Source: an uncultured Bacteroidota bacterium (GTDB lineage Bacteria > Bacteroidota > Bacteroidia > Flavobacteriales > Flavobacteriaceae). From it: a stretch of DNA of 64,000 nucleotides. Location of the stretch: positions 70,308 through 134,307 of the forward strand of contig CACEKG010000001.1 in assembly GCA_902560065.1 (NCBI GenBank), read 5' to 3'. The position numbers and the translations under genes were made by a program. The notes beneath the pieces are model-generated. The model saw nothing but the letters and a program-made list of their open reading frames with translations, was not told the DNA's origin and made no database searches. Below, one piece after another: positions 12,958 through 45,233 of this stretch; within the stretch, counting starts at the first letter, position 1; every line of letters starts with the position of its first letter.

Positions 12958-15900
12958 ATGAATTATTTGATTAGAAGCTCTGGTTTATCTCTTTGCTTGT
13001 CAATTTTTATTCTTCAGTCTTGTACACTTTCTATTCCTGATAAGGTCGAAACTGAATACTCAAATTTGACTGAAGATATAGATTTTAACTACCATATCAA
13101 ACCAATTTTATCTGATCGATGTTTTCAGTGTCATGGTCCAGACTCAAAGACTAGAAAGGCAGGACTTAGATTAGACATTGAAGAAATTGCCTTTTCTAAA
13201 TTGGCAAGTGGAAATAAAGCTTTTTCATCATCAAGTATTTATAAAAGTGAAGTCGCTCACAGAATATTAAGTGATGATCCTACTACTCAAATGCCTCCAC
13301 CTGAATCAAAACTTAGTCTGTCAGACAATGAAAAGGCTTTAATTTTGAGATGGATCGAACAAGGGGCAAAATGGAAAGAACATTGGTCGTTTATTAAACC
13401 AAACTCACCTAAAATTCCAAAAAACATAAATGTTAATTCGAAAATTAATAATGAAATTGATTACTTTATTAATCGAAAATTAAAAAATTTAAATTTAGAA
13501 TTTTCTGAAAAGACATCCAAGGAAAGATTATTAAGGAGAGTATCTATTGATCTTAGAGGCCTTCCTCCATCAATAGAGGAAATCGATGCCTTTGTAAATG
13601 ATAATAGCAGTAACGCCTATGAAAAAGTAGTTGATAAATTTTTAAATTCAGTTGCTCATGCAGAAATGTTAACTCTTGACTGGTTAGACCTTTCAAGGTA
13701 TGCAGATTCTCATGGATTACATGCTGACGGAGCTAGAACAATGTGGCCATGGAGAGATTGGGTTATAAACTCATTTAAAAAAAATATGCCATATGATCAA
13801 TTTGTTACTTGGCAAATTGCCGGTGACCTATTTCAAAATCCTACGCAAGAACAAAAATTAGCAACAGCCTTTAATAGAAATTCTCCTATGACTGCTGAGG
13901 GAGGTGCTATAGATGAGGAATGGAGACTTCACTATGTTTTTGACAGAACAGAAACCCTAAGTACTGCTTTTTTAGGATTAACTGTTGCTTGTGCAAAATG
14001 TCACGATCACAAATTTGACCCAATATCACAAAAGGATTATTATCAACTAGCTTCCTTTTTTAATAATATAAAAGAATTAGGAATGACAGGAGATGATGGA
14101 GATTTTGGCCCCCTTTTACCTATTCCAAATAAAGCAAAAGAGAATGAAATTAATCAAATCAAAGCCAAGATAAATGATAAAGAAAAAGAGATTAATATTC
14201 AAAAAGATAAATTAATAGAGTTCTACACTTATGCAGAAAATCTTAAAACCAAAAATTCTAGTGAAAAAGATATTTTAAATAATTTGAAATCAAATTATTT
14301 AATTGGATACTATCCCCTTAATAAAATTAAAAAATCTAAAAACTCAAATAACAAAAATATATTTATAATTGATAACAACTATTTTGCTAAATCAGAATCT
14401 AAAGCTGAAATTGTAGACGGAATAGAAGGTAAGGCTCTAAAATTTTCAACCGACATAGATTATTTAAAACTGGAAAAAGTTCCAAATTTTGAAACGAATG
14501 ATTCTTTTTCAGGTTCATTTTGGATAAATACTAATGATATGGATCCTGAAAAAACACAACATGTTCTTGGAACAACTGGGCAAAAAAATGATTTTTGGAG
14601 AGGTTGGGATATATACCTAGATAATGAAAACTTCATTAATATGAGGCTAATTAATGTGCAACCAACTAATTTAATTCATGTAAAAGCTGACCTTGTTATT
14701 GAAAAAGATACATGGAATAATATAATATTTTCATACAATGGCTCAGCTAAATCCAGTGGTCTCAGAATTTTTATCAATGGAAAAGAAGCTAATCTTGAGG
14801 TAAAAATGGATAATTTATATAAATCTATACACCCTGTTCCTGTAGGAAAAAAATCCCAAGCTGGATTTCCTTTTAACGTAAGAAAAAAAGATATTAGACC
14901 TTTAAGAGTTGGAAAATCGGGAATGGACCACTCTGGTGATAAGGGTTTGTTTTCAGGAAAAATAGATGATATTTATCTTTTTTCCAAAGACTTAACAACC
15001 TTTGAATCATTAAGTCTTTTTAACTCATATGATATTTCTAAAAAAAATGTAGATGAAAACATTATAAAAAATCATTGGATAGAGTCTGATTATAAAATAT
15101 TAAGAAATAAAGCGAAACTCTCTTCTTTAAGGGAGAATTGGCTTAAAATAATGGAGCCAGTAATTGAAGTAATGGTTATGGAGGAGATGAAAAACCCTAG
15201 AGATAATTATCTTTTAAATAGAGGAAGTTATTTAGAACCTTCCTATAAAGTTGGAATAGATGTTCCTGAAAATTTACCTAGAATGGATTCCTCTCTTCCT
15301 AAAAACAGACTTGGATTAGCAAAATGGTTGTTTTCAAATGAAAACCCTTTAACATCAAGAGTTACAGTAAATAGATATTGGCAAATGATTTTTGGTTATG
15401 GCCTTGTACGAACCCCTGAGGATTTTGGTGTACAAGGAATGCTGCCTAGTCACCCTGAACTTTTAGATTGGTTATCAGTTTATCTAATTAAAAATAATTG
15501 GGACATTAAAAAATTAATTAAACTGATGGTAATGTCTCATGCGTATCAACAAAAATCTACTAGTAATGATAAGCTTAATGAAATTGATCCAAATAATTTT
15601 TTTCTTGCTAGAAGCAATTCATATAAACTACCTGCAGAAATTATTAGGGATAACGCTCTTGCCTCCAGCGGCTTACTAGTCAAAAAAGTTGGTGGACCTA
15701 GTGTGAAACCATATCAACCAGAAGGATTATGGTTAGAAAAAAATAGTTTTTCAGCCGATTTATATAACTACAAAAAAAATTCTGGAGATAGTCTTTACAG
15801 AAGAGGAATGTATACATTTATAAAAAGAACTTCCCCTCCACCCTCTATGATTGCACTTGACGGAACATCTAGAGAGGTTTGTACTGTTAAACGAGAAAAA

Positions 15901-16254
15901 ACTAATACTCCACTTCAGGCTTTAGTGCTGATGAATGATCCTCAATTTTTTGAGGCATCAAGAATTTTGGCAGAAAGAATTCAAAAAGAAGGAGGAAAAA
16001 ATTACTCAGACCAAATTAAATATGGTTTTAGACTTGCAATTTCTAGGTATCCTAAGGATGAGGAATTAAAACTTTTAAATGAGCTTTATGAATCACAACT
16101 AAAATTCTACAAATCAAATCCAAAAATGACAAATCAAATCCTAAAAGTTGGAGACAAAAAATTTGATAGATCCCTTAATAAATATAAAACTGCAGCTTTA
16201 ACTATGGTCTCAAACTTAATTTTAAATCATGATGAAACCTATTTAAAAAGATAA
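12958..16254 (+). CDS. PSCyt1/PSCyt2(DUF1549)/LamG-like/PSD1(DUF1553) multidomain lipoprotein, function unknown (copy 1)
   Basis: 1098 aa. Lipobox LQSCT, heme-type motifs CFQCHG and CAKCHDHKFDP, a LamG-like middle section (FSGSFWINT...GKIDDIYLF) and a DUF1553-type C-terminus (NPLTSRVTVNRYWQMIFG). Confidence 0.85.
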   Translation: MNYLIRSSGLSLCLSIFILQSCTLSIPDKVETEYSNLTEDIDFNYHIKPILSDRCFQCHGPDSKTRKAGLRLDIEEIAFSKLASGNKAFSSSSIYKSEVAHRILSDDPTTQMPPPESKLSLSDNEKALILRWIEQGAKWKEHWSFIKPNSPKIPKNINVNSKINNEIDYFINRKLKNLNLEFSEKTSKERLLRRVSIDLRGLPPSIEEIDAFVNDNSSNAYEKVVDKFLNSVAHAEMLTLDWLDLSRYADSHGLHADGARTMWPWRDWVINSFKKNMPYDQFVTWQIAGDLFQNPTQEQKLATAFNRNSPMTAEGGAIDEEWRLHYVFDRTETLSTAFLGLTVACAKCHDHKFDPISQKDYYQLASFFNNIKELGMTGDDGDFGPLLPIPNKAKENEINQIKAKINDKEKEINIQKDKLIEFYTYAENLKTKNSSEKDILNNLKSNYLIGYYPLNKIKKSKNSNNKNIFIIDNNYFAKSESKAEIVDGIEGKALKFSTDIDYLKLEKVPNFETNDSFSGSFWINTNDMDPEKTQHVLGTTGQKNDFWRGWDIYLDNENFINMRLINVQPTNLIHVKADLVIEKDTWNNIIFSYNGSAKSSGLRIFINGKEANLEVKMDNLYKSIHPVPVGKKSQAGFPFNVRKKDIRPLRVGKSGMDHSGDKGLFSGKIDDIYLFSKDLTTFESLSLFNSYDISKKNVDENIIKNHWIESDYKILRNKAKLSSLRENWLKIMEPVIEVMVMEEMKNPRDNYLLNRGSYLEPSYKVGIDVPENLPRMDSSLPKNRLGLAKWLFSNENPLTSRVTVNRYWQMIFGYGLVRTPEDFGVQGMLPSHPELLDWLSVYLIKNNWDIKKLIKLMVMSHAYQQKSTSNDKLNEIDPNNFFLARSNSYKLPAEIIRDNALASSGLLVKKVGGPSVKPYQPEGLWLEKNSFSADLYNYKKNSGDSLYRRGMYTFIKRTSPPPSMIALDGTSREVCTVKREKTNTPLQALVLMNDPQFFEASRILAERIQKEGGKNYSDQIKYGFRLAISRYPKDEELKLLNELYESQLKFYKSNPKMTNQILKVGDKKFDRSLNKYKTAALTMVSNLILNHDETYLKR

Positions 16255-16255
16255 A

Positions 16256-17698
16256 ATGAATTGTAATAATCACAAACATAATTATAAATTTTCTAGAAGA
16301 GATTTTCTGACTAAAACCTCCTTAGGAATGGGTGCATTAACTCTTGGTTCATTAATTAGTCCTTCAAATTTATATTCTCAAAATAATTCGATCAATAATA
16401 GATTACCTCATTTCCCTCCTAAAGCAAAAAGAGTTATTTATCTTTTGCAAAGTGGAGCTCCGTCTCAACTAGATTTATTTGACTATAAGCCATTACTAAA
16501 TAAACTAAATGGAACGGAACTTCCTGATAGTGTTAGGGGTGGTCAGAGGCTTACTGGAATGAGTTCAGGTCAATCAAGTTTTCCCTTAGCTGGATCAATA
16601 TTTAAGTTTAAACAGTTTGGAAAAAGTGGTGCTTGGATGAGTGAGCTTATGCCTTATACATCTCAAATAGTTGATGATTTGTGTTTTATAAAATCAATGT
16701 ACACTGAGGCAATAAATCATGATCCTGCTGTTACTTTTCTTCAAACTGGATCTGAACTTCCTGGAAGACCTTCAATTGGTTCATGGATAAGTTATGGATT
16801 AGGAAGTGATAATAAAAACTTACCAGAATTTGTTGTCTTAGTAACAAAGGATAAATATGGTCAACCGCTATACTCTCGCTTATGGGGAAATGGTTTTTTA
16901 CCTTCAAAACACCAAGGTGTTCAGTTTAGGTCTGGTAAAAATCCTGTACTTTACTTAGATAATCCACCGGGTGTAACAGCAAATTTAAGAAAAGAACAAC
17001 TTGAATATTTAAAAAAAATAGAAAAAATAAATCATAGAGATGTTGGCGATCCAGAGATACTATCAAGAATGTCTCAATATGAAATGGCCTTTAGAATGCA
17101 ATCCTCTGTTCCCGAAGTTATGGATGTATCCAAAGAACCAGACTACATATATGATCTATACGGTAAAGAGAGTAGAAACCCTGGTACCTTTGCAGCAAAT
17201 TGTTTGCTAGCTAGAAAATTAATTGAAAAAGATGTAAAGTTTATTCAATTATATCATCAAGGTTGGGATCAACATGGAGACTTGCCCAATGCAATCAAAG
17301 TTCAATGTAAAGATACAGACCAACCTACAGCCGGTTTGATTAAAGATTTAAAACAAAGAGGTTTGTTGGATGAAACTCTAGTTATATGGGGAGGTGAGTT
17401 TGGAAGAGGATCGTACTCTCAAGGTACTTTGACTGAAACCAATTATGGAAGAGATCATCACCCTAAATGTTTTACAATATTTATGGCAGGGGCTGGAATT
17501 AAAAAGGGAATCACAATTGGTTCAACGGATGATTTTGGATATAATATTAAGGAACATCCTGTTCATGTTCATGACTTTCAAGCTACTTTAATGCATCTTT
17601 TAGGTATCGATCATGAAAGACTAACATTTAAACATCAAGGAAGACGTTACAGATTGACGGATGTACATGGTGAGATAGTTAAAGAAATACTATCTTAA
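16256..17698 (+). CDS. DUF1501-family protein (sulfatase/alkaline-phosphatase-like fold) with Tat signal (copy 1)
   Basis: 480 aa. SRRDFLTKTSLGMGAL twin-arginine signal and a GRDHHP motif. 1-nt gap to the preceding gene. Confidence 0.85.
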   Translation: MNCNNHKHNYKFSRRDFLTKTSLGMGALTLGSLISPSNLYSQNNSINNRLPHFPPKAKRVIYLLQSGAPSQLDLFDYKPLLNKLNGTELPDSVRGGQRLTGMSSGQSSFPLAGSIFKFKQFGKSGAWMSELMPYTSQIVDDLCFIKSMYTEAINHDPAVTFLQTGSELPGRPSIGSWISYGLGSDNKNLPEFVVLVTKDKYGQPLYSRLWGNGFLPSKHQGVQFRSGKNPVLYLDNPPGVTANLRKEQLEYLKKIEKINHRDVGDPEILSRMSQYEMAFRMQSSVPEVMDVSKEPDYIYDLYGKESRNPGTFAANCLLARKLIEKDVKFIQLYHQGWDQHGDLPNAIKVQCKDTDQPTAGLIKDLKQRGLLDETLVIWGGEFGRGSYSQGTLTETNYGRDHHPKCFTIFMAGAGIKKGITIGSTDDFGYNIKEHPVHVHDFQATLMHLLGIDHERLTFKHQGRRYRLTDVHGEIVKEILS

Positions 17699-26046: not shown

Positions 26047-26238
26047 CTAATTTGAACAAGTCATATCCTCACCACAACACTGAGGTGACTTTATCTTACC
26101 CTGACATTCTGGACATTTAGAAATTTGTACTTTCAAACCATCATCAAGAATTAATACATCATCTTGAAGAGGCTGATCACACTTTGCGCAAGTTGCATTA
26201 ACTGCCATTTCGCATTGTGGACATTCATATGTAGCCAT
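26047..26238 (-). CDS. Small Cys-rich zinc-ribbon-like protein (63 aa)
   Basis: CxxC pairs at CPQC, CAKC and CPEC, plus CC and a C-terminal C. 10-nt gap downstream of the GH29 gene. Confidence 0.5.
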   Translation of the reverse strand: MATYECPQCEMAVNATCAKCDQPLQDDVLILDDGLKVQISKCPECQGKIKSPQCCGEDMTCSN

Positions 26239-26248
26239 AATATTTAAT

Positions 26249-27991
26249 TTATTTAGTTTTTATAACAATTACTCCATTAGCTCCTCTGGAGCCGTATATA
26301 GTAGCAGAAGTTCCTTTAAGAACGCTTATTTTCTCAATATCTTTTGGATTAATATTTCTTAATGTATTTGGATCTTCAGTTTGAACACCATCAATAACAT
26401 ATAAAGGATTATTATTGTTTGTTGTTCCATAACCTCTAACAGTTATAACAGGTGACGAGCCAGGCAATCCACTACCAACAACATTTACCCCTGAAACTCT
26501 TCCTTGAAGAACTTCTATAGTATTAGTTATTGGTGTTTTTATAGCTTCATCAACATCAACAGTGGCAATTGATTCAACAATATTTCTTTTATTTTGATTT
26601 AAATACCCATTAGTGATTTTTTTTAGGTTATTAGCTGTTTTATTATTTTTGAGATTTATTTGGATGATATTATCAATTTTATTCATTTTTAATTTTGATA
26701 AATCAATAGTTAAGCCATATCTACTCTTTTTAAAACCTAAAACTTTTTTATTTTCAAAACCAACGATATTTTTTATTTGAAATGGAAAATCTTCAATATG
26801 TAAAAATTTAGTTTTGTCATCAAAAAGATGGATAAATACCTTGCTACCTTTCTGAGTTGAAACAAATCTGTTGTTAGGATAAATTGGTCCTTTTTTAGTT
26901 CCATAAATGGTTTCTCCATATTTTTTTAGCCAAGATCCAATCTCTTTTAAAGATTTTTGATGGTTTTCCTGTATTTTTCCATTAGGCATTGGTCCTACAT
27001 TTAGTAAAAAATTACTTCCATACCCTGCAGCATTTACTAAATATTGAATAAGCTTTTCTTTCGACTTGTGTTTTCTGTCTTGAAGATTAAAACCCCAAGA
27101 ACCATTAATAGTCTCACATACCTCAAGAGGTAATTTACCTATTTGATCTGCTGGTGTTCCCCATCCTGTAGTATTTTTACCAGGCAAATCTTTTTCAAAC
27201 ATCTGAAAATCTTCCCCATCAATTACTCCTAAATGATGGTTATTACCAATTAATGCCTGAGGTTGTAATTCATGAATCATACCATATATTTCATCATAAT
27301 GCCAATCAACTAGAGACTTTCCAGAAAAACTTTTCCCATCCCAAGCTTTTTGATCCCAATGTCCATCAAACCAAATACCTCCAATTGGACCATAATTAGT
27401 TAATAATTCACGAAGCTGAAATTTCATAAAAGCTATATAATTTTCCCATTTTCCCTCTTTTCTGCCCTCTATACCCTTACCGGTCCTTCCCCTTGGAAAA
27501 TAATCATCTCTATTCCAATCAAGTAAAGAATAATAAAAAAAGAGTTTTATTCCTTGCTTATGACATTCTTCAGCTAATAATTTTAAAACATCCTTTTTAT
27601 AAGGTGTACTATCAACAATATCATAATCAGTAGCTTTAGAGTCGAACATTGAAAAGCCATCATGATGTCTACTAGTTATGGTTATATAATTCATACCCGC
27701 AGACTTTGCTAGAGAAACCCACTGCTTAGCATCAAAATCAATAGGGTTAAAAAAAGAGGGTAATTTTTCATATTCACTAATCGAAATATTTTGGTTGTTC
27801 ATTACCCACTCACCGTCACCTAAAACACTATATACTCCCCAATGAATAAACATTCCAAACTTTGCATTTTCAAACCATTCTCTTGCTTTTAAATTTTCAA
27901 TAGTTGGCTTATATGACTGAGCATAAAAAACACTATCATGTAAAAACAAAAAAACTAAAACAAAAATTAAATTTCTAAATTTTAAAATCAT
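26249..27991 (-). CDS. GH29 alpha-L-fucosidase with an in-frame C-terminal TonB-dependent-receptor plug-like domain
   Basis: The signal peptide, FGMFIHWGVYS and TSRHHDGFSMFDS are typical GH29. The last ~108 aa (EVLQGRVSGVNV...PLYVIDGVQTEDPN...) align without gaps to the SusC plug in this window. Confidence 0.85.
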   Translation of the reverse strand: MILKFRNLIFVLVFLFLHDSVFYAQSYKPTIENLKAREWFENAKFGMFIHWGVYSVLGDGEWVMNNQNISISEYEKLPSFFNPIDFDAKQWVSLAKSAGMNYITITSRHHDGFSMFDSKATDYDIVDSTPYKKDVLKLLAEECHKQGIKLFFYYSLLDWNRDDYFPRGRTGKGIEGRKEGKWENYIAFMKFQLRELLTNYGPIGGIWFDGHWDQKAWDGKSFSGKSLVDWHYDEIYGMIHELQPQALIGNNHHLGVIDGEDFQMFEKDLPGKNTTGWGTPADQIGKLPLEVCETINGSWGFNLQDRKHKSKEKLIQYLVNAAGYGSNFLLNVGPMPNGKIQENHQKSLKEIGSWLKKYGETIYGTKKGPIYPNNRFVSTQKGSKVFIHLFDDKTKFLHIEDFPFQIKNIVGFENKKVLGFKKSRYGLTIDLSKLKMNKIDNIIQINLKNNKTANNLKKITNGYLNQNKRNIVESIATVDVDEAIKTPITNTIEVLQGRVSGVNVVGSGLPGSSPVITVRGYGTTNNNNPLYVIDGVQTEDPNTLRNINPKDIEKISVLKGTSATIYGSRGANGVIVIKTK

Positions 27992-27997
27992 TAAAAA

Positions 27998-28525
27998 TTA
28001 ATTTTCGAAAGGAATAGCTACTCTAATATCTTCCCATCCTATATGAAGATTTGCTCCATCATCTAAAGCTTCAAAAGCCATTGAAAGAGCTTCAAGCGAT
28101 TTTTTAGATTTAGTTACTGGAACTATTACTCTCATGATATCATCTGACTCTTTATAATTATATGAACCCCATGTATGAGTAGCGCTATTAATAATTATAG
28201 TCCATTCCTTAGCTCCTGGAATAGTATAAAGTGTATATGAACCAGGTGATATTTTTTTTCCTCCAAAATTCATAGACTTATAAAAAGTAATCTCTGTTGA
28301 TTCATTAGCTCCTGTTCTCCATAATTTTCCATTTGAGACTATCTTATTAAATTCTCTTCCCCTTAATTGAGGTCTGCTATAAATTACTCTCATAACTTTA
28401 TCCTTACCTCTTTGAGCAGGATATTCAATCATATCTAAAGGACTTTTATCTAGTGCCTTAAATTCTTGACCATAAGATGAGTAACTAAAGGTAACTGCAA
28501 TAATAAAAAGTAACATTTTTTTCAT
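27998..28525 (-). CDS. DUF2911-family secreted protein
   Basis: 175 aa with a signal peptide. The WRTGANESTEITF and GSYTLYTIP pattern is characteristic of DUF2911. Confidence 0.75.
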   Translation of the reverse strand: MKKMLLFIIAVTFSYSSYGQEFKALDKSPLDMIEYPAQRGKDKVMRVIYSRPQLRGREFNKIVSNGKLWRTGANESTEITFYKSMNFGGKKISPGSYTLYTIPGAKEWTIIINSATHTWGSYNYKESDDIMRVIVPVTKSKKSLEALSMAFEALDDGANLHIGWEDIRVAIPFEN

Positions 28526-29412: not shown

Positions 29413-30759
29413 ATGAAATTTAAAAAATTCTTTTTTTTAACTTTCTTTCTGTTCTTGTTGAATTGTGAAAAAGAGTCAACAGATATAAATAATACTTCAG
29501 AGGAATTAAATTTGGATGACACAAATCTTTTACCTCAATTTAAAATTGATACTTCTAATAAAACAATAGTAGATGAACCAAAAATTCCAGCATCAATGGA
29601 TTTATATATTGATGGGGAATTAAATAAATCCTATAATATTGGAATTGAAATAAGAGGATCTAGCTCACAATTTTTTGAAAAAAAATCATATGGAGTTGAA
29701 ACTTGGAATGGTAACAATGAGGATATTGATACTGACTTAGGAGGATTTCCTGAAGAAGAAGATTGGATTTTATATGGGCCTTTCAGTGACAAAAGTTTAA
29801 TAAGAAATGTACTGATTTTTCAACTATCAAATGCCATAGGCATGTACGGAAGTCGAACAGATTTCTATGAACTTACAATAAATGATAAATTCTTAGGGAC
29901 CTATGTTCTCATGGAAAAAATTAAAAGAGATAAAAATCGTGTAAACATAAGTAAAAATTTAGATGACGATATTTCTGGTGGTTATATTATTAAAATTGAT
30001 AAACCGCCAGATGAAGGATACACATCTGCTAACTCTTTTTCATCTAAATTTGATACAAGAGGATCTTATGTTGGTGCGTCTGACATAAAGTTTCTCTACA
30101 CATACCCAAAATCATCTGAAATCTCAAATGATCAAAAAAATTACATTAAAAATTATATAAATGACTTTGAAGAGGCTTTATTATCCTCAAATTTTCAAGA
30201 TCCTGAAATAGGTTATCAAAAATACATTGACATTGATAGTTTTGTAGATTTTTTAATATTAAACGAAATTTCAAAAAATATTGATGCCTATAGAATAAGT
30301 ACATTTATGCATAAGGATAAAAACCAAAAACTAAAAATGGGTCCCATTTGGGATTTTAATCTAGGGTTTGGCAACGTTAATTATTGTGATGCCGAACTAG
30401 AATCTGGATGGTCCTATAAATTTAATGATGTATGTGGAGGTGATAATTGGAAAGTTCCTTTTTGGTGGAATAGATTGTTTGAAGATCCTGCATTTGTTTC
30501 TAAATTAAAAAATAGATGGTCTGATTTAAGAACAAATATACTATCTGATCAAAATTTACAAGATAGAATTGATGAAATCACAAATTTTCTAATTGAACAT
30601 AATGCTCCTCGAAGAAATTTTGATAAATGGACGATCATAGGTAAATATGTTTGGCCAAATAATTATATAGGAAATAATTATGGTGAAGAAATCTCATACT
30701 TAAAAAACTGGTTGGAAAAAAGAGTTAAATGGATGGATGAGGAAATTAATTCAATTTAA
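29413..30759 (+). CDS. CotH-family protein (atypical kinase fold), lipoprotein
   Basis: Lipobox LLNCEKE. Central and C-terminal regions (YVLMEKIKRDKNRV, GPIWDFNLGFGN) match the CotH family as I remember it. Confidence 0.8.
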   Translation: MKFKKFFFLTFFLFLLNCEKESTDINNTSEELNLDDTNLLPQFKIDTSNKTIVDEPKIPASMDLYIDGELNKSYNIGIEIRGSSSQFFEKKSYGVETWNGNNEDIDTDLGGFPEEEDWILYGPFSDKSLIRNVLIFQLSNAIGMYGSRTDFYELTINDKFLGTYVLMEKIKRDKNRVNISKNLDDDISGGYIIKIDKPPDEGYTSANSFSSKFDTRGSYVGASDIKFLYTYPKSSEISNDQKNYIKNYINDFEEALLSSNFQDPEIGYQKYIDIDSFVDFLILNEISKNIDAYRISTFMHKDKNQKLKMGPIWDFNLGFGNVNYCDAELESGWSYKFNDVCGGDNWKVPFWWNRLFEDPAFVSKLKNRWSDLRTNILSDQNLQDRIDEITNFLIEHNAPRRNFDKWTIIGKYVWPNNYIGNNYGEEISYLKNWLEKRVKWMDEEINSI

Positions 30760-32053
30760 TTTTATCAATTGTCAAAACACTATTTAATAAAACATTTGCT
30801 CCTTTAATAATTGATTCAGGAGTGGAATATTCTTCAGGTGAATGACTAATGCCATCTATACTGGGAATAAATATCATTCCTGTTGGAGTAATTACAGCCA
30901 TATCTTGAGCATCATGTCCAGCTCCACTAGGCATAAATTTTGTAGAATATCCCAGATTAATTGAAACCTCATCAATCACTTTTTGAATTCTTGAATCAGT
31001 TAATGCAGGTTCGGCAGTAGCATCTAATGGTTTAAATTCAAACTTTGTATTTGTTTGAGTGGCTATAATATTAGATTCCTCTTTAATATTTTTAAATAAA
31101 AGTTGAATTTTTTCTTTACTTAAATCTCTCAATTCTAAACTTAATACAACTTTTCCTGGAATAACATTTGGAGCTCCCGGGTATGCTGAAATTCTTCCAA
31201 CTGTTCCAACTTGAGAACCTTCTATAGAGTTTACAACTTGATTAACTTTAAGGACAAATTTTGCAGCAGCAATCATTGCATCTTGTCTAGAATTCATAGG
31301 TGTTGTTCCAGCATGGTTTGCAAAACCAGAGATAATAACATCCCACCATTTTAAACCAACAATTCCTTCTACCACTCCAATATCTGTTTTACTAGAATTT
31401 AATATATTTCCTTGTTCAATATGCAATTCTAAAAAAGCATGTACCTCATTTTTTTTTCTTGCTAATTCAAGTACCTTTTCTGGATTTCCCCCAATTCTTT
31501 TTAAGCCCTCACGAATAGTATATCCAGATGATGTTTTAACATCAAGTGTTTTATTTTCAATTTTTCCAGCAATAGCTCGACTTCCAAAAATTGCTCCCTC
31601 TTCATTTGAAAAAATGATTAATTCCAAAGGATGATCGGTATATATTTTATTTTCATTAAATACCTCTAAAATCTCAATTGAACTTATAACCCCTACATTT
31701 CCATCATAATGCCCTCCATTGGGAACTGCATCTATATGAGAGCCAAACGAAATAGGTTTTAAATTTTTTTTTAAACCTTTCCTTAAAGCTATTATATTTC
31801 CTGCATAATCAATATTGACTTGAGTTCCAATTTTTTCAAGGTAATTTATTAAATATTTTCTAGCTGAAATATCATAATCACTATAAGCAACTCTATCATT
31901 TCCTCTATTTGAATTTATTCCAAACTCTGTAAGTTTAATTAAATTTTTATGGAGTCTTTCATTATTTACCTTTATTAATTTTTCTTGAGAAAATAAATTA
32001 TTTAAAAAAAATAGAAGAAAAATAAATATCTTGAGGAAAGATTTATTGACCAT
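30746..32053 (-). CDS. M20-family Zn-dependent amidohydrolase (allantoate amidohydrolase / N-carbamoyl-amino-acid hydrolase type) with N-terminal signal peptide
   Basis: GSHIDAVPNGGHYDGNVGV and SGAGHDAQ motifs. The hydrophobic N-terminus is MVNKSFLKIFIFLLFFLNNLFSQ. Confidence 0.85.
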   Translation of the reverse strand: MVNKSFLKIFIFLLFFLNNLFSQEKLIKVNNERLHKNLIKLTEFGINSNRGNDRVAYSDYDISARKYLINYLEKIGTQVNIDYAGNIIALRKGLKKNLKPISFGSHIDAVPNGGHYDGNVGVISSIEILEVFNENKIYTDHPLELIIFSNEEGAIFGSRAIAGKIENKTLDVKTSSGYTIREGLKRIGGNPEKVLELARKKNEVHAFLELHIEQGNILNSSKTDIGVVEGIVGLKWWDVIISGFANHAGTTPMNSRQDAMIAAAKFVLKVNQVVNSIEGSQVGTVGRISAYPGAPNVIPGKVVLSLELRDLSKEKIQLLFKNIKEESNIIATQTNTKFEFKPLDATAEPALTDSRIQKVIDEVSINLGYSTKFMPSGAGHDAQDMAVITPTGMIFIPSIDGISHSPEEYSTPESIIKGANVLLNSVLTIDKIKLN

Positions 32054-32173: not shown

Positions 32174-35100
32174 ATGATAAAAAACCTAACTGGTATTTTG
32201 TTTTTTTTTCTAGCTAGCTTTTTTACTTATTCTCAAATTGATGTAAGTGGAACTGTTACAGATGAAGCTGGTGGAGCAATTCCCGGCATTACTGTAATTA
32301 TAGCTGGAACTAATCAAGGTACTACAACAGATTTTGATGGAAATTATTCTATCACTGCATCCGCAGATCAAGAACTGGAGTTTTCAAGTCTTGGTTTTGT
32401 TACTCAAAGAATAGCTATTAATAATCAAGATAATATTGACGTAATTATGATTGAGTCAATAGAAGTTCTTGATGAAATTGTTGTTTCTGGATATTCTACT
32501 CAATCTAGAAGAACTCTTTCTGGAGCTATTGGAAGTGTTGATGTAGCAGATGCGATTAAAACCCCAACAACTAACGCTGCAGAGGCTCTTCAAGGAAGAG
32601 TAGCTGGTGTTAATGTTGTTAACAGTGGGCAACCTGGTGCAGCACCTGTCGTTACAGTTAGAGGTTATGCTACTACAAATAGTAATAATCCTTTGTATGT
32701 AATTGACGGTGTTCAAACAGAAGATCCTAATGTTTTAAGAGATATCAACCCAAAAGATATTGATAAAATTAGTGTTCTTAAGGATGGAGCTGCAGCAATT
32801 TATGGTGCAAGAGCTTCAAATGGAATTATTGTTGTTACTACAAAAGGCGGAACTTACAATACTAAAAACACAATTGAGGTTGAGGCCGTTTATGGAACAA
32901 ATGATTTGACTAATAGAATGGAGCTTTTAAATTCTCAACAATGGGCCGACATGATTTGGCAAAGTAAAATCAATGATGGTATTGCCCCTAGTCACCCTCA
33001 GCTTGGTTCAGGAGCTTCTCCTGTTCTTCCAACAGTTTTAAATATTCAAATGCCTAATTTACCTCAGTATGAGGGAGCAAGTGCTGTTGTCGAACCAGGA
33101 GGTACAAGATGGATGGATGAACTATTTAAAAAATCTAACACCTTAAATACTTCTATAGTTGCAAGAGGGGGTTCAGAGACTGGAAGATACTCTCTTTCTG
33201 TAAATTATTTAGATCAAGAGGGTGTTAAAATATTCACTGGTTATGAAAGACTTACAACTAGGCTAAATTCTGAGTTTAAAATTGGTGACAAAGTAACAAT
33301 TGGGGAACACTTAAATGTAACTTATGATAAAGAACAAACTGGAGCTGGAGATTTTAGATCTGCTTCAGGACTTGCTCCTATAGTACCTATAAGAGATGAT
33401 AAAGGTAATTTTGCTGGTTCATATAATAATTCTTATGGTCTAGGTATTGCTGACAGTCCAGTTGCTCAATCTTATAGAGCTCAAGATAATTACAATAAAA
33501 ACTTAAGAGTTATAGGAGATATTTTTCTAAAATATGATATCACAGACTTTTTAACATTTAAGTCTTCTGCAGGTATTCAAATGCGTCAATTAAACGGTAG
33601 GTCATTTGCAAAATTAAATCCTGAACATGGTGAAGCGATTTCAACGCAGACTTTAAGAGAAAATTCATTCTTAAATAGTGAATGGGTAATTTCCAATACT
33701 TTAACTTACTCAGATTCTTTTGGAGATCATGCCATTGATGCTTTAATTGGAACTGAGGCTGTTAAATGGAGTCAAAAAGGTAGCGGTGTATTAAGAACTG
33801 GTTATTTATTTGAAACACCAGAATTTTACTTACTAAGTAATGGTTCTGGAACACCAGTTGTTTTTGATGGTTATGATACTTCATATTCTTTGTTTTCTCT
33901 TTTTGCTACAGCTAACTATGCATTCAAAGAAAAATACTTTTTTACAGCTACTGTTAGACAAGACGAAACCTCTAGGTTTGCAAAAGCAAATGCTGACTCG
34001 ATATTTCCCTCAGCTAGTGCTGGATGGTTAATAAGTGATGAAAGTTTTTTTCCAAGTGGTTTGGTCTCAACAATGAAACTTAGAGCTTCTTATGGAATAC
34101 TTGGAAACCAATCTTTAACAGTTTCGAATCCTGATACAAATATTTCATTATTAAGTGAAAATGCTGCATTCTATGTCTTTACTGGATCTGGAGCTGCTAC
34201 AACAGGAGCTGCTTTAAATTCAAAAGGTAATCCAGCTCTGACATGGGAGAAAACAACATCTCAAAATTTTGCTGTTGATTTTGGATTCTTTGATAATAAA
34301 TTAACTGCTACAATTGATATGTTTTCTAATGAAACTCAAGACTTAATATCTCAGGATAACAACCTTATTAGTAGTACTGCAATTGATGCTGCAGCGCCTT
34401 ATGTTAATATTGGATCAATGGAAACAAAAGGTTTTGATCTATCTCTTGCATATCAAAATGAAACAAATGGTTTACAGTATGGTTTAACTGCTAATGTAAC
34501 TAAAGCAGAAAATGAGGTAACATCTCTTATAGCAGAGTACTATTCTGGTGGAACATCTAGAATGGGTGCTTTAACAAGAACTGCTCCAGGTTATCCAATT
34601 TCTTCATATTATGGAAGAATCGTTGATGGAATTTTTCAAAATGATGGAGAAGTAGCTGCTCACGCATCACAAGACGGAGCTGCTCCAGGTAGATTAAGAT
34701 ACAAAGATGTTGATGGAAATGGAGTAATAAATGATCTAGATAGAACCTGGATGGGTAGTTATCATCCTGATTTTACTTATGGTATTAATATAAATATGGC
34801 TTATCAAAATTTTGATCTTTCTGCATTCTTTTATGGTGTTCAAGGAGCTGATTTATTCCATTATACAAGGCTTTACAATAGTTTCCCATTATTCTTTAAT
34901 GGAAATAGAACTACTGACGTTTTAGATTCATGGACTCCATCAAATCCTGATGCTGCTATGCCTGCGCTTAGTGAAGCCATTAGAAACAACGAAGCAACTG
35001 CATCGAATTCGTTCTTTGTAGAGGATGCATCTTATTTAAGACTTAGATCTCTTCAAGTTGGATATACATTCCCTGAAGCTATTAATAACTTAATTGGTGC

Positions 35101-35266
35101 CTCAAGTATGAGATTATTTTACAGTGGTTATAATATTTTTACAATCACTGATTACACTGGAATGGACCCAGAGGTTCCATTTGGAGGAACAACTGATCTT
35201 GGAGTTGTATTTGCTCAATATCCAACTTCAAAATCTCACTCAATTGGTGTTAACATTAAATTTTAA
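32174..35266 (+). CDS. susC: SusC/RagA-family TonB-dependent outer-membrane transporter
   Basis: 1030 aa. CarboxypepD_reg-like N-domain (VSGTVTDEAGGAIPGITV...DFDGNYSI), plug (ALQGRVAGVNV), long barrel and terminal Phe. SusD follows immediately. Confidence 0.92.
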   Translation: MIKNLTGILFFFLASFFTYSQIDVSGTVTDEAGGAIPGITVIIAGTNQGTTTDFDGNYSITASADQELEFSSLGFVTQRIAINNQDNIDVIMIESIEVLDEIVVSGYSTQSRRTLSGAIGSVDVADAIKTPTTNAAEALQGRVAGVNVVNSGQPGAAPVVTVRGYATTNSNNPLYVIDGVQTEDPNVLRDINPKDIDKISVLKDGAAAIYGARASNGIIVVTTKGGTYNTKNTIEVEAVYGTNDLTNRMELLNSQQWADMIWQSKINDGIAPSHPQLGSGASPVLPTVLNIQMPNLPQYEGASAVVEPGGTRWMDELFKKSNTLNTSIVARGGSETGRYSLSVNYLDQEGVKIFTGYERLTTRLNSEFKIGDKVTIGEHLNVTYDKEQTGAGDFRSASGLAPIVPIRDDKGNFAGSYNNSYGLGIADSPVAQSYRAQDNYNKNLRVIGDIFLKYDITDFLTFKSSAGIQMRQLNGRSFAKLNPEHGEAISTQTLRENSFLNSEWVISNTLTYSDSFGDHAIDALIGTEAVKWSQKGSGVLRTGYLFETPEFYLLSNGSGTPVVFDGYDTSYSLFSLFATANYAFKEKYFFTATVRQDETSRFAKANADSIFPSASAGWLISDESFFPSGLVSTMKLRASYGILGNQSLTVSNPDTNISLLSENAAFYVFTGSGAATTGAALNSKGNPALTWEKTTSQNFAVDFGFFDNKLTATIDMFSNETQDLISQDNNLISSTAIDAAAPYVNIGSMETKGFDLSLAYQNETNGLQYGLTANVTKAENEVTSLIAEYYSGGTSRMGALTRTAPGYPISSYYGRIVDGIFQNDGEVAAHASQDGAAPGRLRYKDVDGNGVINDLDRTWMGSYHPDFTYGININMAYQNFDLSAFFYGVQGADLFHYTRLYNSFPLFFNGNRTTDVLDSWTPSNPDAAMPALSEAIRNNEATASNSFFVEDASYLRLRSLQVGYTFPEAINNLIGASSMRLFYSGYNIFTITDYTGMDPEVPFGGTTDLGVVFAQYPTSKSHSIGVNIKF

Positions 35267-35314: not shown

Positions 35315-37009
35315 ATGAAAACTAAATTATATACATTACTAATTTCAATTTTTATTTTAGCCTCTTGTGCAGATGACTTTACTGAAATAAATCCAGTTGG
35401 AGCACTCAGTGATGAAGCATTAAATAATGCAAAGGGAGTTGATTTATTATTGACAGGAACATATTCTGTTTTAGACGGAATGCGAAACGGTGGTCCTGGA
35501 GCTCCTTGGGCTAAAGAAGGAAATAATTGGTGGTTAGACGTAATCGCTGATGACGCTCATAAAGGAAGTACTGATGGTGACCAAGCAGATTTATACGCTG
35601 CTGAAATCTATCAGTGGGATACTTCAAACCCATATTTTGGGGGAAGGTGGAGTGCTGTATTTGCAGGAGTCAATCGTGCAAATGGGGTTATTTCTCTTAT
35701 TAATTCGGCAGATGATCCATCTGTGTTTAACGTTCAATTGGCTCAAGCTAGATTCTTAAGAGGTCACTATAATTTTGAGTTACAAAGAATGTGGGTTAAT
35801 GTCCCTTATATTTCAGATCAAAATTATGCTGATACTGAGTTTAATCAGCCTAATCCTGGTCCTATTTGGGATAAGATTGAAGAAGACTTTGCTTTTGCTG
35901 TTGCTAATCTTCCTACAGCTAGAAGCGGAAGCTACAGTGAACCTGGAAGACCACTAGCAAGTGCTGCTAAAGCATACCTAGGAAGAGCTCAACTATATCA
36001 AGGAAAATGGGGTGATGCTCTTGGTAATCTAGAAGCAGTAATTAACAGTGGTGATTATGCGCTTCTTCCCGAATTTGTCGAAAATTGGAAATCTACTGGA
36101 GAAAATGGATCTGAAGCAATTTTTGGTATACAATATGCTACAGATACTGGTCAATCACCTCAAGGAAATCAAGGTGGAGTTTTAAATTTTCCAGCGCCTA
36201 TTGGATGTTGTGGTTTTTACCAACCTACACAAGATCTCTTCAACAGTTTTGAAACTGATGCTAATGGATTACCACTTTTAGATACTTATAATCAAGCTGA
36301 TTTGGCAAGTGATTACGGAATTTATTCTGATGAACCATTTACTCCCACAACTGCAAATCTTGATCCTCGTGTTGATTATACAGTTGGTAGAAGAGGAATT
36401 GATTATCAAGGTTATGGAGTGAATCCTGGTAAAGATTGGGTTCGTGCAACTTTTGGTGACATTTCAGGACCTTACGTCTCAAAGAAAAATGTCTATTATA
36501 AAGATGATGAAGGAGCTAACAAAGGTACTGGTGGATGGGGAGAAATACGAACAGGTATTAATCACCATATCATAAGATATGCTGATGTTCTGCTAATGGC
36601 TGCAGAAGCTGCTGTTGAGACTAATGCACTTGAAAAAGGACGTGGTTATGTTAATCAAGTTAGAGAAAGAGCAAAAAGCATGTCCAGAATTCAAGCTCCT
36701 GGAGGTGGTGATGCTGCTAACTATGTAATTGATACGTATAATACAGCATGGACAAGTCAAGCTACAGCTAGAAAAGCTGTTCGAATGGAAAGAAGACTAG
36801 AAATGGCGATGGAAGGAAGTAGACTATTTGACCTTAGAAGATGGGGAATAATGGTTCAAACTTTAAACACATACATAGCTAATGAAACAAGATCTATTCC
36901 GACTTTTTCAAAAGCTCAACCTGTTAGTGATAAGCATAATGCACTTCCAATTCCATCTTATGCAATTGACCAATCACAAGGTGCTTTATCACAAAATTCT
37001 GGTCATTAA
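35315..37009 (+). CDS. susD: SusD/RagB-family glycan-binding lipoprotein
   Basis: Lipobox ILASCADD. The C-terminal RLEMAMEGSRLFDLRRWG motif is typical of SusD-like proteins. Confidence 0.9.
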   Translation: MKTKLYTLLISIFILASCADDFTEINPVGALSDEALNNAKGVDLLLTGTYSVLDGMRNGGPGAPWAKEGNNWWLDVIADDAHKGSTDGDQADLYAAEIYQWDTSNPYFGGRWSAVFAGVNRANGVISLINSADDPSVFNVQLAQARFLRGHYNFELQRMWVNVPYISDQNYADTEFNQPNPGPIWDKIEEDFAFAVANLPTARSGSYSEPGRPLASAAKAYLGRAQLYQGKWGDALGNLEAVINSGDYALLPEFVENWKSTGENGSEAIFGIQYATDTGQSPQGNQGGVLNFPAPIGCCGFYQPTQDLFNSFETDANGLPLLDTYNQADLASDYGIYSDEPFTPTTANLDPRVDYTVGRRGIDYQGYGVNPGKDWVRATFGDISGPYVSKKNVYYKDDEGANKGTGGWGEIRTGINHHIIRYADVLLMAAEAAVETNALEKGRGYVNQVRERAKSMSRIQAPGGGDAANYVIDTYNTAWTSQATARKAVRMERRLEMAMEGSRLFDLRRWGIMVQTLNTYIANETRSIPTFSKAQPVSDKHNALPIPSYAIDQSQGALSQNSGH

Positions 37010-41949: not shown

Positions 41950-44900
41950 ATGAGAATTATATCTAAATTTTTATTCTACTTGTCAATCTCACTGATGATA
42001 TCATCCTGTTCAATCAATGTACCATCAGAAGTTGAGATGGAATTTTCAAATTTACCAGAAACTATTGATTATAATTATGATGTTAAGCCTATTTTATCCG
42101 ACAGATGTTATCAGTGTCATGGCCCAGATGAAAAAACAAGAAAGGCTGGTCTAAGACTTGATATTGAAGAAATTGCATTTTCTAAATTACAAAGTGGAAA
42201 TCAAGCTTTTTCATCAGGAAGCACTTATGGAAGTGAAGCTGCTCACAGAATTTTATCTTCTGACCCTGATGAGATGATGCCAACTCCAGAATCTAAACTA
42301 TCATTATCAAATAAAGAAAAGGCAATTATTCTAAAATGGATTGAACAAGGTGCCATTTGGAAAGAACATTGGTCTTTCCTCCCTGTGAAAAAGCCAAAAT
42401 TGCCAATTTTTGAAAAGGATAATAAAAAAATAAAAAATCCAATTGATAATTTTATTTATAATAAACTAATTAGAAATGATTTAAGTTTTTCCGAATTATC
42501 AACTAAAGAAAAACTTATTAGAAGAGTTTATTTTGACCTTACTGGTCTTCCCCCATCAATTCAAGAAGTAAATGACTTTGTTTCTGATGATGATCCAAAT
42601 GCTTATTCAAAAATTGTCGACAAACTGTTAAATAGTGATGAAAATGCAGAAAGATTAACAATGGAGTGGCTTGATCTTTCAAGATATGCAGATTCCCATG
42701 GATTACATGCTGACGGTTTAAGAATAATGTGGCCTTGGAGAGATTGGGTTATTAAGGCTTTTAAAAACAATATGCCTTACGATGAATTTGTTTCGGTTCA
42801 ATTAAGTGGAGATTTAAGAGAAAATGCATCAAGAGAAGAAAAAATAGCTACTGCATTTAGCAGGAATTCTCCTATGACTGCTGAAGGAGGAGTAATTGAT
42901 GAAGAATGGAGGTTAAATTATGTTTTCGATAGAACTGAAACAGTTGGGACAGCTTTTCTTGGTCTTACAATGATGTGTGCAAAATGTCATGATCATAAAT
43001 TTGATCCCATCTCACAGAAAGATTATTATCAACTATCTGGTTTTTTCAATCAAATTAGAGAACTTGGAATGACAGGTGATGATGGTGATTATGGTCCTTT
43101 AATGCTCTTGCCTGAAGTCTCTCAAGAAAAAAAGATACTTGCTTTAGATAAGAAAATTGATCAAAAAAAAACTAAACTAAAACTCACTGAAAAAGAGCTT
43201 TCCGAGTTTTATAATTATAGCAATGCTCTTTCTAAATCAAAAATTTCCAGATCAATTAAAAAATCAATTATTCAAAGAGCTAAACTTGAAAATATTAAAC
43301 CTTTTAAAAAGAAGCTTGCCTCATTTACAATTGTACAAGGGACTTTTGATAGAAGTTCAAATTTCATAATAGATAATGATTATAATATTTTATGTAATGT
43401 TGCCCCTAAAATAGAAAAAGGGATTGATGGAAATGCCTTTAAATTAGGAACTGGAAGTGATGCAATTTTTCTAGATGCTGTTCCTAATTTTGAATGGACA
43501 GATCCTTTTTCAGCCAGTGTTTGGATTAATACTGAAAAAAGAAAGAAAGGTTTTGGACAAACAATAATGGGTACCACAGGAGGTAAAAACAATTTTTGGA
43601 GAGGCTGGGATCTTTATTTAGATGATCAAAATTTTATTAATCTAAGATTAGTTAGTGCTCTTCCTGGAAATTTAATTCATATTAAATCAAAAGACTCTAT
43701 TTTAAAAAACAATTGGACTCATTTATCTTTTTCATATGATGGATTAGGAAAAGCAGATGGAACAAATTTATTTGTAAATGGTTCAAAAATTAAAAATCAA
43801 GTATTAGTAGATAATTTGTATAAAACCATAAAACCTGTATCAAGTAGTGGTATAAAATTAGAAAAAAGAGAACTTAAAATAGGTGTCTCAAATGATGGGT
43901 CTAGTGGAGATAACAAAATATTTAAAGGCTTAGTTGATGATATAGTTGTTTATAATAGAGCCTTAACTGATTATGAAATTGGTCATATTTATAATCAATA
44001 CAATGTTAGCCAAAAATTGAACTTTAATGATTCTCAAATAAAAAATCATATAATAAACAGTGATTATAAAATAACCCAATTGAAAAATCAAATTCAAAAT
44101 CTAAAGCAAAAAAAACTCAATGAAGTTTCTGATGTAATTGAATTAATGATTATGGAAGACATGGATACAAAAAGAAAAACTTTTCTTTATGATAGAGGTT
44201 TATACTCTATGCCTAGCTATGAAGTTAGCACAGACGTTCCATCTAAACTACCAAGAATGTCTGAAGATTTACCTAAAAATCGTATTGGGCTTTCAAAATG
44301 GTTATTTGATAAAAAAAACCCTTTAACTTCTAGAGTTGCTGTTAATAGATATTGGCAAATGATTTTTGGCAGGGGTATTGTTAATACACCTGGAGATTTT
44401 GGCGTTCAAGGTTCATTACCTTCTCATCCTGAATTACTTGACTTTCTGTCAAATTATTTTATTGAGAACAACTGGGATATTAAAAATCTAATAAGATTAA
44501 TGGTTAATTCACACACTTATATGCAAAGTTCAATACCAAATAAAAAATACACTGAAATTGATCCAGATAATATTTTTCTTTCTAGAAGCAATAGTTATAG
44601 GTTACCCGCTGAAATGATTAGGGATAATGCACTTGTTGCAAGTGGTTTAATGGTTAAAAATGTGGGAGGTGAAAGTGTCAAACCCTACCAACCAAAAGGT
44701 TTATGGAGAGAAAAATCAAATTTCTCTATAAAGCTAATGAACTATAAAGAATCCTCAGGTGACAGTCTCTATAGAAGAAGCATGTATACATTTATAAGAA
44801 GAACATCTCCTCCTCCATCAATGTCTGTTTTTGATGCTCCAAATAGGGAGGTATGTACAATAAAAAGAGAAATTACAAATACTCCATTACAAGCTCTTGT

Positions 44901-45228: not shown

Positions 45229-45233
45229 ATATT

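Follow-up and report, generated by a model that had tools for sequence, protein, structure and literature searches.

A predicted alpha-L-fucosidase carrying a captured, barrel-less SusC plug domain in uncultured marine Flavobacteriaceae

Plug domains are usually seen as components that TonB-dependent barrels always include and that do not occur apart from them. In the 64,000-nucleotide stretch of DNA analysed here (the window), a GH29 alpha-L-fucosidase reading frame nevertheless continues into a plug resembling that of a SusC-type transporter encoded nearby, and the protein ends where a barrel would begin. This raises the question of whether the fusion is real, where its tail came from and whether that tail has been kept for a purpose.

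The fused gene occupies 26249–27991 on the minus strand as a single open reading frame of 580 residues plus the stop codon (26249–26251), and its orthologues (P0001–P0010) are full length. It opens with a type-I signal peptide read from the sequence (residues 1–24; 27920–27991, minus strand), with a putative cleavage site after MILKFRNLIFVLVFLFLHDSVFYA and before Q. The catalytic domain follows (residues 23–360; 26912–27925, minus strand), matching the Alpha_L_fucos profile PF01120 over positions 10–345 of 345 in a Pfam search (1.1e-98, 331 bits against a cut-off of 25.2). In an alignment of 40 sequences D209, within WFDG, is nearly invariant and E266 is invariant; these are candidates for the catalytic Asp nucleophile and Glu acid/base, respectively, of GH29 enzymes. 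A C-terminal beta-sandwich domain (residues 361–448; 26648–26911, minus strand) is delimited by the end point of unfused relatives and by the AlphaFold2 (AF2) strands. The added segment starts after residue 448 (window position 26648), where more than 100 unfused relatives end with ..IDxIIxIxLK and a stop codon, so the interval 26249–26650 singled out by the original prediction is almost exactly the added segment. It consists of a linker (residues 449–467; 26591–26647, minus strand), holding a TonB-box remnant, LKKITNG (residues 456–462; 26606–26626, minus strand), and an A8 homopolymer (26617–26624, minus strand; T8 on the plus strand), and of the Plug domain itself (residues 468–580; 26252–26590, minus strand). 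The PF07715 match spans residues 468–574 and profile positions 2–107 of 107 (7.9e-20, 71.8 bits against a cut-off of 23.9); the in-frame joining of GH29 and Plug is thus borne out, with a plug that is both significant and complete.

Nothing else of a transporter accompanies it. The reading frame stops at ..NGVIVIKTK, where SusC runs on through ..TTKGG into its barrel; Pfam gives no match in the fusion to the barrel family PF00593 or to the N-terminal extension (CarboxypepD_reg-like) families PF13715 and PF13620, both of which match the neighbouring SusC. No SusC homology was found past the fusion stop, and an unrelated 63-residue gene begins 10 nt downstream. On the upstream side, a DUF2911 gene identified by Pfam (27998–28525, minus strand) lies on the same strand across a 6-nt gap and occupies the same place in fused and unfused loci. 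The signal peptide contains no Cys, hence no lipobox, which predicts a periplasmic location, and the fusion has no Pfam match to the T9SS sorting domain Por_Secre_tail, a model that does detect P0122 and P0146. The enzyme, previously described as secreted, is on these grounds probably periplasmic. We conclude that this is a genuine gene and that its predicted product is a GH29 exo-alpha-L-fucosidase with a type-I signal peptide. GenBank names the fused proteins simply 'alpha-L-fucosidase', and present-day databases therefore do not reveal the architecture.

The same in-frame combination of PF01120 and PF07715 is found in 10 protein clusters of 71–99% identity from independent assemblies, and the junction recurs unchanged in at least 14 contigs (JGI, ENA, Tara, Logan and NCBI). 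An exact-sequence look-up of the window protein gave no match; the window is a 99% relative of, and not identical to, the MAG PBHD01000014.1 (L008). Gene order is syntenic: DUF2911, fusion, (63-residue gene), SCP2, UmuD, UmuC, 2-oxoglutarate dehydrogenase. A tree restricted to the GH29 domain groups the fused proteins as a single clade in 200 of 200 bootstraps. Across lineages the 3' junction is identical (..AAA ACx AAA TAA ATT), and all tails have in common two derived residues relative to SusC, including the terminal ..KTK before the stop. The fusion evidently has a single origin, basal to a clade of marine Flavobacteriaceae that are uncultured, and the data fit the origin by recombination that had been offered as one explanation. 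Unfused GH29 enzymes of marine Flavobacteriaceae (444–450 residues; P0011, P0014 and P0018, for example) are 70–76% identical to the fusion over residues 1–448 and share its type of signal peptide and its locus (CotH, EEP, DUF2911, GH29 ... SCP2, UmuD, UmuC), but they stop at the ancestral motif without the 132-residue linker and plug and without the orthologous SusCD pair within 10 kb. That pair lies 4–6 kb from the fusion in fused loci and was seen in 0 of 26 unfused loci examined; none is present on the 14-kb contig of the deepest fused lineage, L006. Five unfused contigs (L026, L027, L031, L032, L035) with a match span of 2.4 kb were considered as a pre-fusion GH29–SusC arrangement and rejected, the second match being a tandem GH29 paralogue.

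Within the window, the neighbouring SusC (32174–35266, plus strand) is a complete transporter by Pfam and BLASTP, with N-terminal extension domain, TonB box, Plug and barrel, and is followed by its SusD partner (35315–37009, plus strand; Pfam). In a pairwise alignment the segment homologous to the tail covers SusC residues 103–224 (32480–32845, plus strand), forming with 26252–26617 an inverted repeat whose arms are 5.9 kb apart. BLASTP aligns the fusion to this SusC with 58% identity over 148 residues (E=3e-51), and over the whole homologous stretch of 122 codons identity is 66% in amino acids and 72% in nucleotides (dN 0.21, dS 1.05, dN/dS 0.20). The hand counts of the original prediction were reproduced on recounting: 77 of 108 residues identical in an ungapped alignment (fusion 473–580 against SusC 117–224, an interval that had been placed one residue too far on, at 118–225), and 78 of 93 nucleotides identical, with 10 of the 13 differing codons synonymous. 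The tail has its closest paralogue, and likely donor, in the neighbouring SusC, at 66% identity; the best non-orthologous plugs listed in the top 150 of 30,416 tail matches, from 1.84 billion representative proteins, reach at most 57%. A further BLASTP similarity upstream (fusion residues 433–448 against SusC 79–94) was considered as part of a SusC N-terminal extension domain and rejected; it is the last beta-strand of GH29 and, being found also in unfused relatives, is coincidental. On a single occasion, at the base of the clade, the GH29 gene captured a copied piece of about 400 bp from the 5' part of a SusC gene, running from inside the TonB box to the last plug strand and replacing the GH29 stop codon.

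Compared with SusC/RagA-type transporters, including the window SusC and BT1763 (PDB 5T3R/6ZLT), the tail is a bona fide plug homologue that starts within the TonB box, ends at the last plug strand, has no 22-strand barrel, N-terminal extension domain or SusD of its own, and sits at the C-terminus of a soluble enzyme. DEIVVSG in SusC corresponds to LKKITNG in the window and to SKLAVSG or IKRTVSG in the deepest lineages; relative to the consensus (D/E)EVVVxGY, the fused tails have lost the acidic residue and the hydrophobic run, and the TonB box of the tail has evidently decayed. In BT1763, alanine changes in or deletion of the TonB box DEVVVTG abolish function, making it essential for transport (PMC7782687). 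With no barrel, no N-terminal extension domain and a decayed TonB box, the captured plug cannot act as a transporter.

As the tail is still homologous to resident SusC plugs (inverted repeat about 6 kb away), gene conversion by these has repeatedly replaced portions of its sequence. In L001 a 101-nt perfect run is common to the tail and the SusC of the same contig; this tract is SusC-like and its flanks are only 60–65% identical. The L092 tail is 92–97% identical to the SusC of L001 over about 210 nt, with a dS of 0.26 where orthologues give at least 0.8. In L004 the tail is a mosaic relative to that of the window (85–90%, then 47–65%, then 82–97% nucleotide identity), and its interior is 61–71% identical to a plug of another SusC class, which was the donor in that lineage. 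The similarity of tail to SusC, originally put down to selection, is therefore owed to selection in part, and in sister lineages partly to recent gene conversion; within converted tracts the constraint looks stronger than it is, since the donor is itself under selection.

Constraint is nonetheless visible elsewhere. Not one stop was seen in the tail against about 43 expected under neutrality (about 17 stop-gain paths per unit divergence multiplied by a tree length of 2.58 dS; P ~2e-19). For pairs without visible conversion, tail dN/dS is 0.26–0.31 (window versus L090) and 0.13 (L001 versus L006), and in columns 1–55 of L001 and L006, which have only 60–65% nucleotide identity to SusC, it is 0.17. 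By comparison, the GH29 catalytic domain gives 0.04–0.06, orthologous SusC plugs give 0.05, and the GH29 C-terminal domain gives 0.13–0.19, within an overall range of 0.08–0.24 for that domain. The tail has been kept at full length, with the same stop position, over about 2.6 synonymous substitutions per site, under purifying selection about as strong as that on the enzyme's own C-terminal accessory domain. The claim that the tail is constrained rather than decaying stands on the missing stops and on dN/dS values of 0.13–0.31; the 93-nt stretch from which it was drawn is, however, the most conserved core of any plug, and across the tail selection is about 3–6 times weaker than on the SusC plug, with a non-synonymous rate 3–6 times that of the true plug.

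The best explanation overall, to which we give about an even chance, is that of a selected GH29 gene with a captured and gene-converted SusC plug, the tail acting as a periplasmic docking module. Alternatively, the plug copy may be a tolerated passenger without specific function, retained because a truncated or misfolding tail would harm the enzyme and because SusC conversion keeps repairing it. Tail dN is 4–8 times the catalytic-domain value, a plug of only about 50% identity can take the place of the interior, L001 and L092 carry conversion tracts, and AF2 confidence is low for the tail, all as a passenger would predict. Possible loss variants (L173–L176) point the same way: an A7 in the linker run of contig L173 leads to a 463-residue GH29 and an orphan plug frame, and three short contigs carry the tail without GH29, with short-word BLAST and six-frame translation giving nothing significant for the DNA that precedes the tail in L175 and L176. 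If real, these variants indicate that the fusion can be lost without harm, at least for a short time. However, a stop at or near the junction would restore the ancestral 448-residue enzyme and should be neutral, and none has become fixed in the 10 clusters; segments without signs of conversion are still constrained, as in columns 1–55, and the stop position and the two derived residues are kept in all lineages. We consider a passenger unlikely, though well short of negligible.

The full-length AF2 model gives the tail a pLDDT of 28–55, against about 90 for the GH29 C-terminal strands, and nothing usable on inter-domain contacts. Modelled alone, the tail reaches a pLDDT of 65.5 and matches SusC plugs with a TM-score of 0.77 and an rmsd of 2.6–2.8 Å; its best PDB sequence match is BT1763 SusC residues 110–230 (3.7e-27), and all core plug motifs are conserved. 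The plug fold is thus predicted to be retained. Plugs without a barrel have been made in the laboratory, whereas the tail is natural and enzyme-fused: the isolated FepA plug (N-domain) behaves as a largely unfolded protein that still binds ligand weakly, at 5 µM (PMC11658791), and the HasR plug made alone is soluble and folded (bioRxiv 2026.08.12.744447). The low pLDDT of the tail and the unfolded state of the isolated FepA plug suggest that the tail may not fold stably alone, which counts against docking.

We propose, with low confidence, that the tail is not a gate but a soluble module for docking in the periplasm. In its topology, GH29 would take the very position of the SusC N-terminal extension domain on the periplasmic side, so the plug-shaped tail could bind the periplasmic mouth of SusC-type barrels, from which the native plug can exit in vitro, or the TonB machinery, and a docked tail would keep the fucosidase at the point of arrival of imported fucosylated oligosaccharides. 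Closed SusCD states without plug density have been observed in vitro (PMC7782687); together with the soluble HasR plug, the barrel-less modules of Bacteroidota and the SusCD pair 4–6 kb away in fused loci, these make docking tentatively plausible. Counting against it, no plug-less barrel is encoded in the 64 kb, the window SusC has its own intact plug, and the L006 contig lacks a SusCD pair, as do the possible loss variants count against it if real; that the tail interior is replaceable by a plug only about 50% identical also argues against a highly specific interface. The more specific mechanism, in which the tail inserts into or caps the periplasmic SusC barrel mouth when its own plug is displaced, or engages the TonB complex, coupling glycan import to the first periplasmic hydrolysis while recurrent conversion keeps or re-targets the match of enzyme and transporter, is doubtful at present.

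It is improbable that the tail is instead a substrate-binding module, reusing the apical plug loops, which face the glycan cavity in SusC, to hold an imported oligosaccharide for the fucosidase. C-terminal binding modules are common on GH29 enzymes. The ligand binding retained by isolated FepA plug would fit such a role, as would the sulfatases directly downstream in one fused lineage, which suggest a sulfated fucan substrate. In BT1763, however, 15 Å separate the bound glycan from the plug, and it is chiefly the barrel and SusD that hold it (PMC7782687); variability within the tail is highest in the plug loop regions, and an interior swap from another SusC class would alter any such specificity.

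Very improbable is a recombination switch, in which crossing-over at the inverted plug repeats (26252–26617 and 32480–32845) would invert the 5.9-kb segment between them, alternating between GH29-plug with a normal SusC and a GH29-plug-barrel chimera with a truncated protein of N-terminal extension domain and plug. The repeats are indeed inverted, and non-reciprocal exchange is demonstrable from the 101-nt tract of L001, but gene order is the same in 7 of 7 assemblies with both genes, no GH29 protein longer than 586 residues appears among the top matches, the longest identical run in the window is only 15 nt, and no invertase gene or recombination site was seen. That the fusion is an artefact of assembly or annotation, through contig chimerism or an overlooked stop or frameshift, is practically out of the question: although repeated plug sequences can mislead assemblers and a few low-coverage contigs have odd joins, the assembly chimera once entertained is ruled out by the identical in-frame junction in those contigs and independent assemblies from many samples across 71–99% identity, and tail and SusC of the window have no identical run above 15 nt in common.

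Returning to the fusion as a selected gene with a docking tail, its nearest natural parallels are barrel-less plug-repeat proteins of Bacteroidota (P0122–P0125, P0128, P0134, P0146, P0168), in which Pfam Plug occurs outside any beta-barrel in periplasmic or secreted contexts. These carry 3–6 tandem copies of the C-terminal plug half only (about 65–70 residues), on BlaR1/M56-like membrane domains, bare signal peptides or T9SS tails, whereas the plug of the fusion is complete and occurs once. Unlike the fusion tail, they are old, divergent sequences and not recent copies of a resident SusC plug. We found no description of their function, yet they show that a soluble, separate form of the plug core is possible. 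No description of a GH29-plug or any enzyme-plug protein was found in the literature searched, in keeping with the original remark that the architecture is undescribed; the broader novelty of a barrel-less plug is qualified by these other Bacteroidota proteins. Among the best 150 of 30,416 tail matches, outside which distant examples could lie, there were no other enzyme-plug fusions save fragments of the same family and truncated SusC gene calls.

The locus provides a clean natural case of domain capture followed by concerted evolution of a gene fragment and its parent. A selected plug on a soluble enzyme means that this domain can live outside a barrel, and the plug-repeat proteins point the same way. 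If the docking proposal is true, it would link enzyme and TonB-dependent transporter in a manner that is new, and would imply that the plug exits SusC barrels in vivo; a tail that docks on SusC or TonB would be a natural probe of the debated plug exit during transport, and the fusion would exemplify the coupling of an enzyme to a transporter in the degradation of marine polysaccharides.

The 580-aa ORF at 26249–27991 (reverse strand) is, judged from its sequence, a GH29 family member extended by a SusC-type plug. Both domains of the original prediction are significant in this single reading frame, with Alpha_L_fucos (Pfam PF01120, 1.1e-98) at aa 23–360 and a complete Plug (PF07715, 7.9e-20; profile positions 2–107 of 107) at aa 468–574; the Pfam search found no barrel, CarboxypepD_reg-like domain or T9SS tail. 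Close unfused GH29 relatives (>100 proteins; 63–76% identity) are 440–450 aa long and end in '..IDxIIxIxLK*', a position equivalent to aa 448 in the window protein, and the added segment of linker and plug occupies aa 449–580 (26252–26647, reverse strand). Recognisable SusC homology begins inside the TonB box (DEIVVSGY in SusC, LKKITNGY in the window tail), where the acidic residue and hydrophobic run are gone, and ends with the last plug strand, where SusC passes through ..TTKGG into the barrel and the tail reads ..KTK and stops; no SusC homology was found downstream of this stop codon. The TonB box of BT1763 (82-DEVVVTG-88) is essential for function (PMC7782687). Classification as a TonB-dependent transporter was rejected because tests for a barrel, a TonB box and an N-terminal extension domain were each negative, and the fused protein cannot transport anything. 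The protein starts with a type-I signal peptide that has no lipobox cysteine, which suggests a periplasmic location.

The neighbouring SusC at 32174–35266 has all its parts, from the N-terminal extension domain through Plug to barrel, is followed by a SusD gene and is the sole SusC in the 64-kb window, where no plug-less barrel was found either. It matches the fusion at 58% identity over 148 aa (BLASTP, E=3e-51), and the counts first made by hand against it (77/108 aa, 78/93 nt and 10 of 13 differing codons synonymous) were reproduced exactly; over all 122 homologous codons, identity is 66% (aa) and 72% (nt), with dN 0.21, dS 1.05 and dN/dS 0.20. The two plugs form inverted repeats 5.9 kb apart. 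SusC proteins are also the nearest solved sequences to the tail (BT1763 residues 110–230, 3.7e-27). Modelled alone with AF2, the tail (pLDDT 65.5) fits SusC plugs at TM 0.77 and rmsd 2.6–2.8 Å; in the full-length model it is of low confidence (pLDDT 28–55). The core plug motifs LQGR.xG, (I/V)RG, NNPLY(V/I)(V/I)DG, I.P.DI..I.VLK and IYG.R..NGVI.(V/I)KTK are kept in every lineage.

The same length and PF01120+PF07715 content recur in 10 protein clusters (P0001–P0010; 71–99% identity) from JGI, ENA, Tara, Logan and NCBI, including GenBank MBK79200.1 and MFQ3341313.1, named solely as 'alpha-L-fucosidase'. The fused contigs are syntenic (DUF2911, fusion, a 63-aa gene in some, SCP2, UmuD, UmuC, 2-oxoglutarate dehydrogenase), and unfused relatives occupy the same locus. 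An assembly chimera, one option originally considered, is excluded by the 10 clusters, the synteny and the shortness of the longest identical run between window tail and window SusC (≤15 nt). A tree of 121 sequences built on GH29 alone (aa 25–449) places the fused proteins in a single clade in 200/200 bootstraps, with the branching order (P0010,(P0009,window-type)), and all tails have in common the 3' junction and two residues derived relative to SusC. The gene is thus a domain capture of single origin.

Purifying selection on the tail, proposed at the outset, is upheld by comparison of orthologous fused genes in six lineages (Nei-Gojobori, without a recombination-aware model). dN/dS is 0.04–0.09 for the GH29 catalytic domain, 0.08–0.24 for the GH29 C-terminal domain and 0.13–0.36 for the tail in all lineages except L004, the contig of the P0008 lineage, whose mosaic tail gives 0.5–0.8; orthologous true SusC plugs give 0.05. 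The two cleanest pairs yield 0.26–0.31 (window and L090) and 0.13 (L001 and L006), and the first 55 columns of the latter pair, which carry no sign of conversion, yield 0.17. Under neutrality, ~40 pre-stop codons on a tree of 2.58 dS units should have gained ~43 stops; none was observed (P ~2e-19). Since a stop near the junction would do no more than restore the ancestral enzyme, the lack of any such stop speaks for the tail being kept for its own sake. The fused gene is maintained by selection.

Tails and SusC plugs also exchange sequence, which the original prediction had not noticed. In the P0009 lineage (L001), tail and same-contig SusC share 101 nt of perfect identity between flanks only 60–65% identical, the two copies being in inverted orientation ∼5.5 kb apart (within L001:5575–5940 and L001:11366–11737). 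This arrangement, found in three assemblies, is a recent intragenomic gene conversion, directed from SusC to tail since the tract has SusC-type sequence. The L092 tail is 92–97% identical to the L001 SusC over ∼210 nt (dS 0.26), compared with dS 0.8–1.0 for orthologous genes of these lineages. The L004 tail matches the window at 85–90% nt identity to aa 465, 47–65% at aa 470–559 and 82–97% at aa 560–580; its interior, indel pattern included, fits another SusC plug class (61–71% identity) and is only 51–52% identical to the window tail or its own neighbouring SusC. The window tail shows no sign of recent conversion.

In the window, L001, L004, L008, L088 and L089, the fusion has an orthologous SusCD pair 4–6 kb away; no such pair occurs within 10 kb in 26 unfused loci or on the 14-kb contig of L006, the deepest fused lineage. 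Between CotH and SusC, an M20 peptidase gene (30746–32053, reverse strand) is also present in L088 and L001 and missing from L008 and L089 (both 99% identical) and from L004, so that its presence is polymorphic among strains that are very closely related. A 63-aa cysteine-rich ORF (26047–26238, reverse strand; four CxxC-like pairs, no signal peptide or Pfam match) starts 10 nt past the fusion stop codon in the window and occurs in L001, L004, L005, L006, L091 and L092; in L008 and L089 (both 99% identical) and in L090 it is absent and the convergent SCP2 gene directly adjoins the fusion, their stops 3 nt apart. The linker contains an A8 run (26617–26624); the deepest lineages, L001 and L006, lack a long A stretch there. 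TARA scaffold L173 (∼2030–2050), otherwise 98.6% identical and collinear, has A7 and encodes a 463-aa GH29 and an orphan 72-aa plug ORF, for which sequencing error, a naturally occurring loss allele or slippage could account. On three short contigs from different samples (L174:1568–1926, L175:105–483, L176:160–586), a tail 96–97% identical to that of the window precedes SCP2-UmuD and unrelated DNA replaces GH29 (in L174, PseudoU_synth and Metallophos_2 genes), with three distinct breakpoints, each in AT-rich sequence; these may be errors, chimeric assemblies or real loss variants.

Two sulfatase genes inserted immediately downstream of the fusion in the P0009 lineage (L001:11751–14808) hint at a sulfated fucan substrate. 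Other glycosidase genes in the window encode GH3 and two GH20. The window also holds two copies (12958–17698 and 41950–46688) of a planctomycete-type PSCyt1/PSCyt2/PSD1 pair (DUF1549/DUF1553, Laminin_G_3 insert) with DUF1501, the second adjoining an FG-GAP/ASPIC protein and GH16.

The novelty originally claimed for a plug lacking its barrel stands in part. Among the listed matches to the tail, barrel-less Plug proteins occur elsewhere in Bacteroidota (P0122–P0125, P0128, P0134, P0146, P0168). These proteins carry 3–6 tandem C-terminal half-plug units of ∼65–70 aa (consensus 'PLYVIDG ... I.SI.VLKD.SA.ALYG..G.NGVI.ITTK'), in contrast to the one complete plug of the fusion, attached to BlaR1/M56-like membrane domains, bare signal peptides or T9SS sorting tails; no account of what they do was found. 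M56 domains of Bacteroides have otherwise been reported in fusion with TonB C-terminal domains (PMC10350073). The literature searched yielded no glycosidase bearing a whole plug recently copied from a resident SusC.

The topology of the fusion would be that of a barrel-less SusC whose signal peptide and N-terminal extension domain are exchanged for GH29. Nothing suggests that the inverted plug repeats form a recombination switch, in which crossover would yield a GH29-plug-barrel chimera: gene order is identical in 7/7 assemblies with both genes, and no long GH29 protein is among the matches listed. The tail may also be a tolerated passenger or a glycan-binding module. In vitro, closed SusCD complexes show no density for the plug, and a crystal form without the plug has been obtained (PMC7782687). 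The HasR plug made alone is folded and soluble (bioRxiv 2026.08.12.744447), and that of FepA, unfolded in isolation, still binds ligand weakly (PMC11658791). On account of these observations we tentatively favour a role for the tail as a periplasmic docking module, which might bring the fucosidase to SusC or the TonB machinery.
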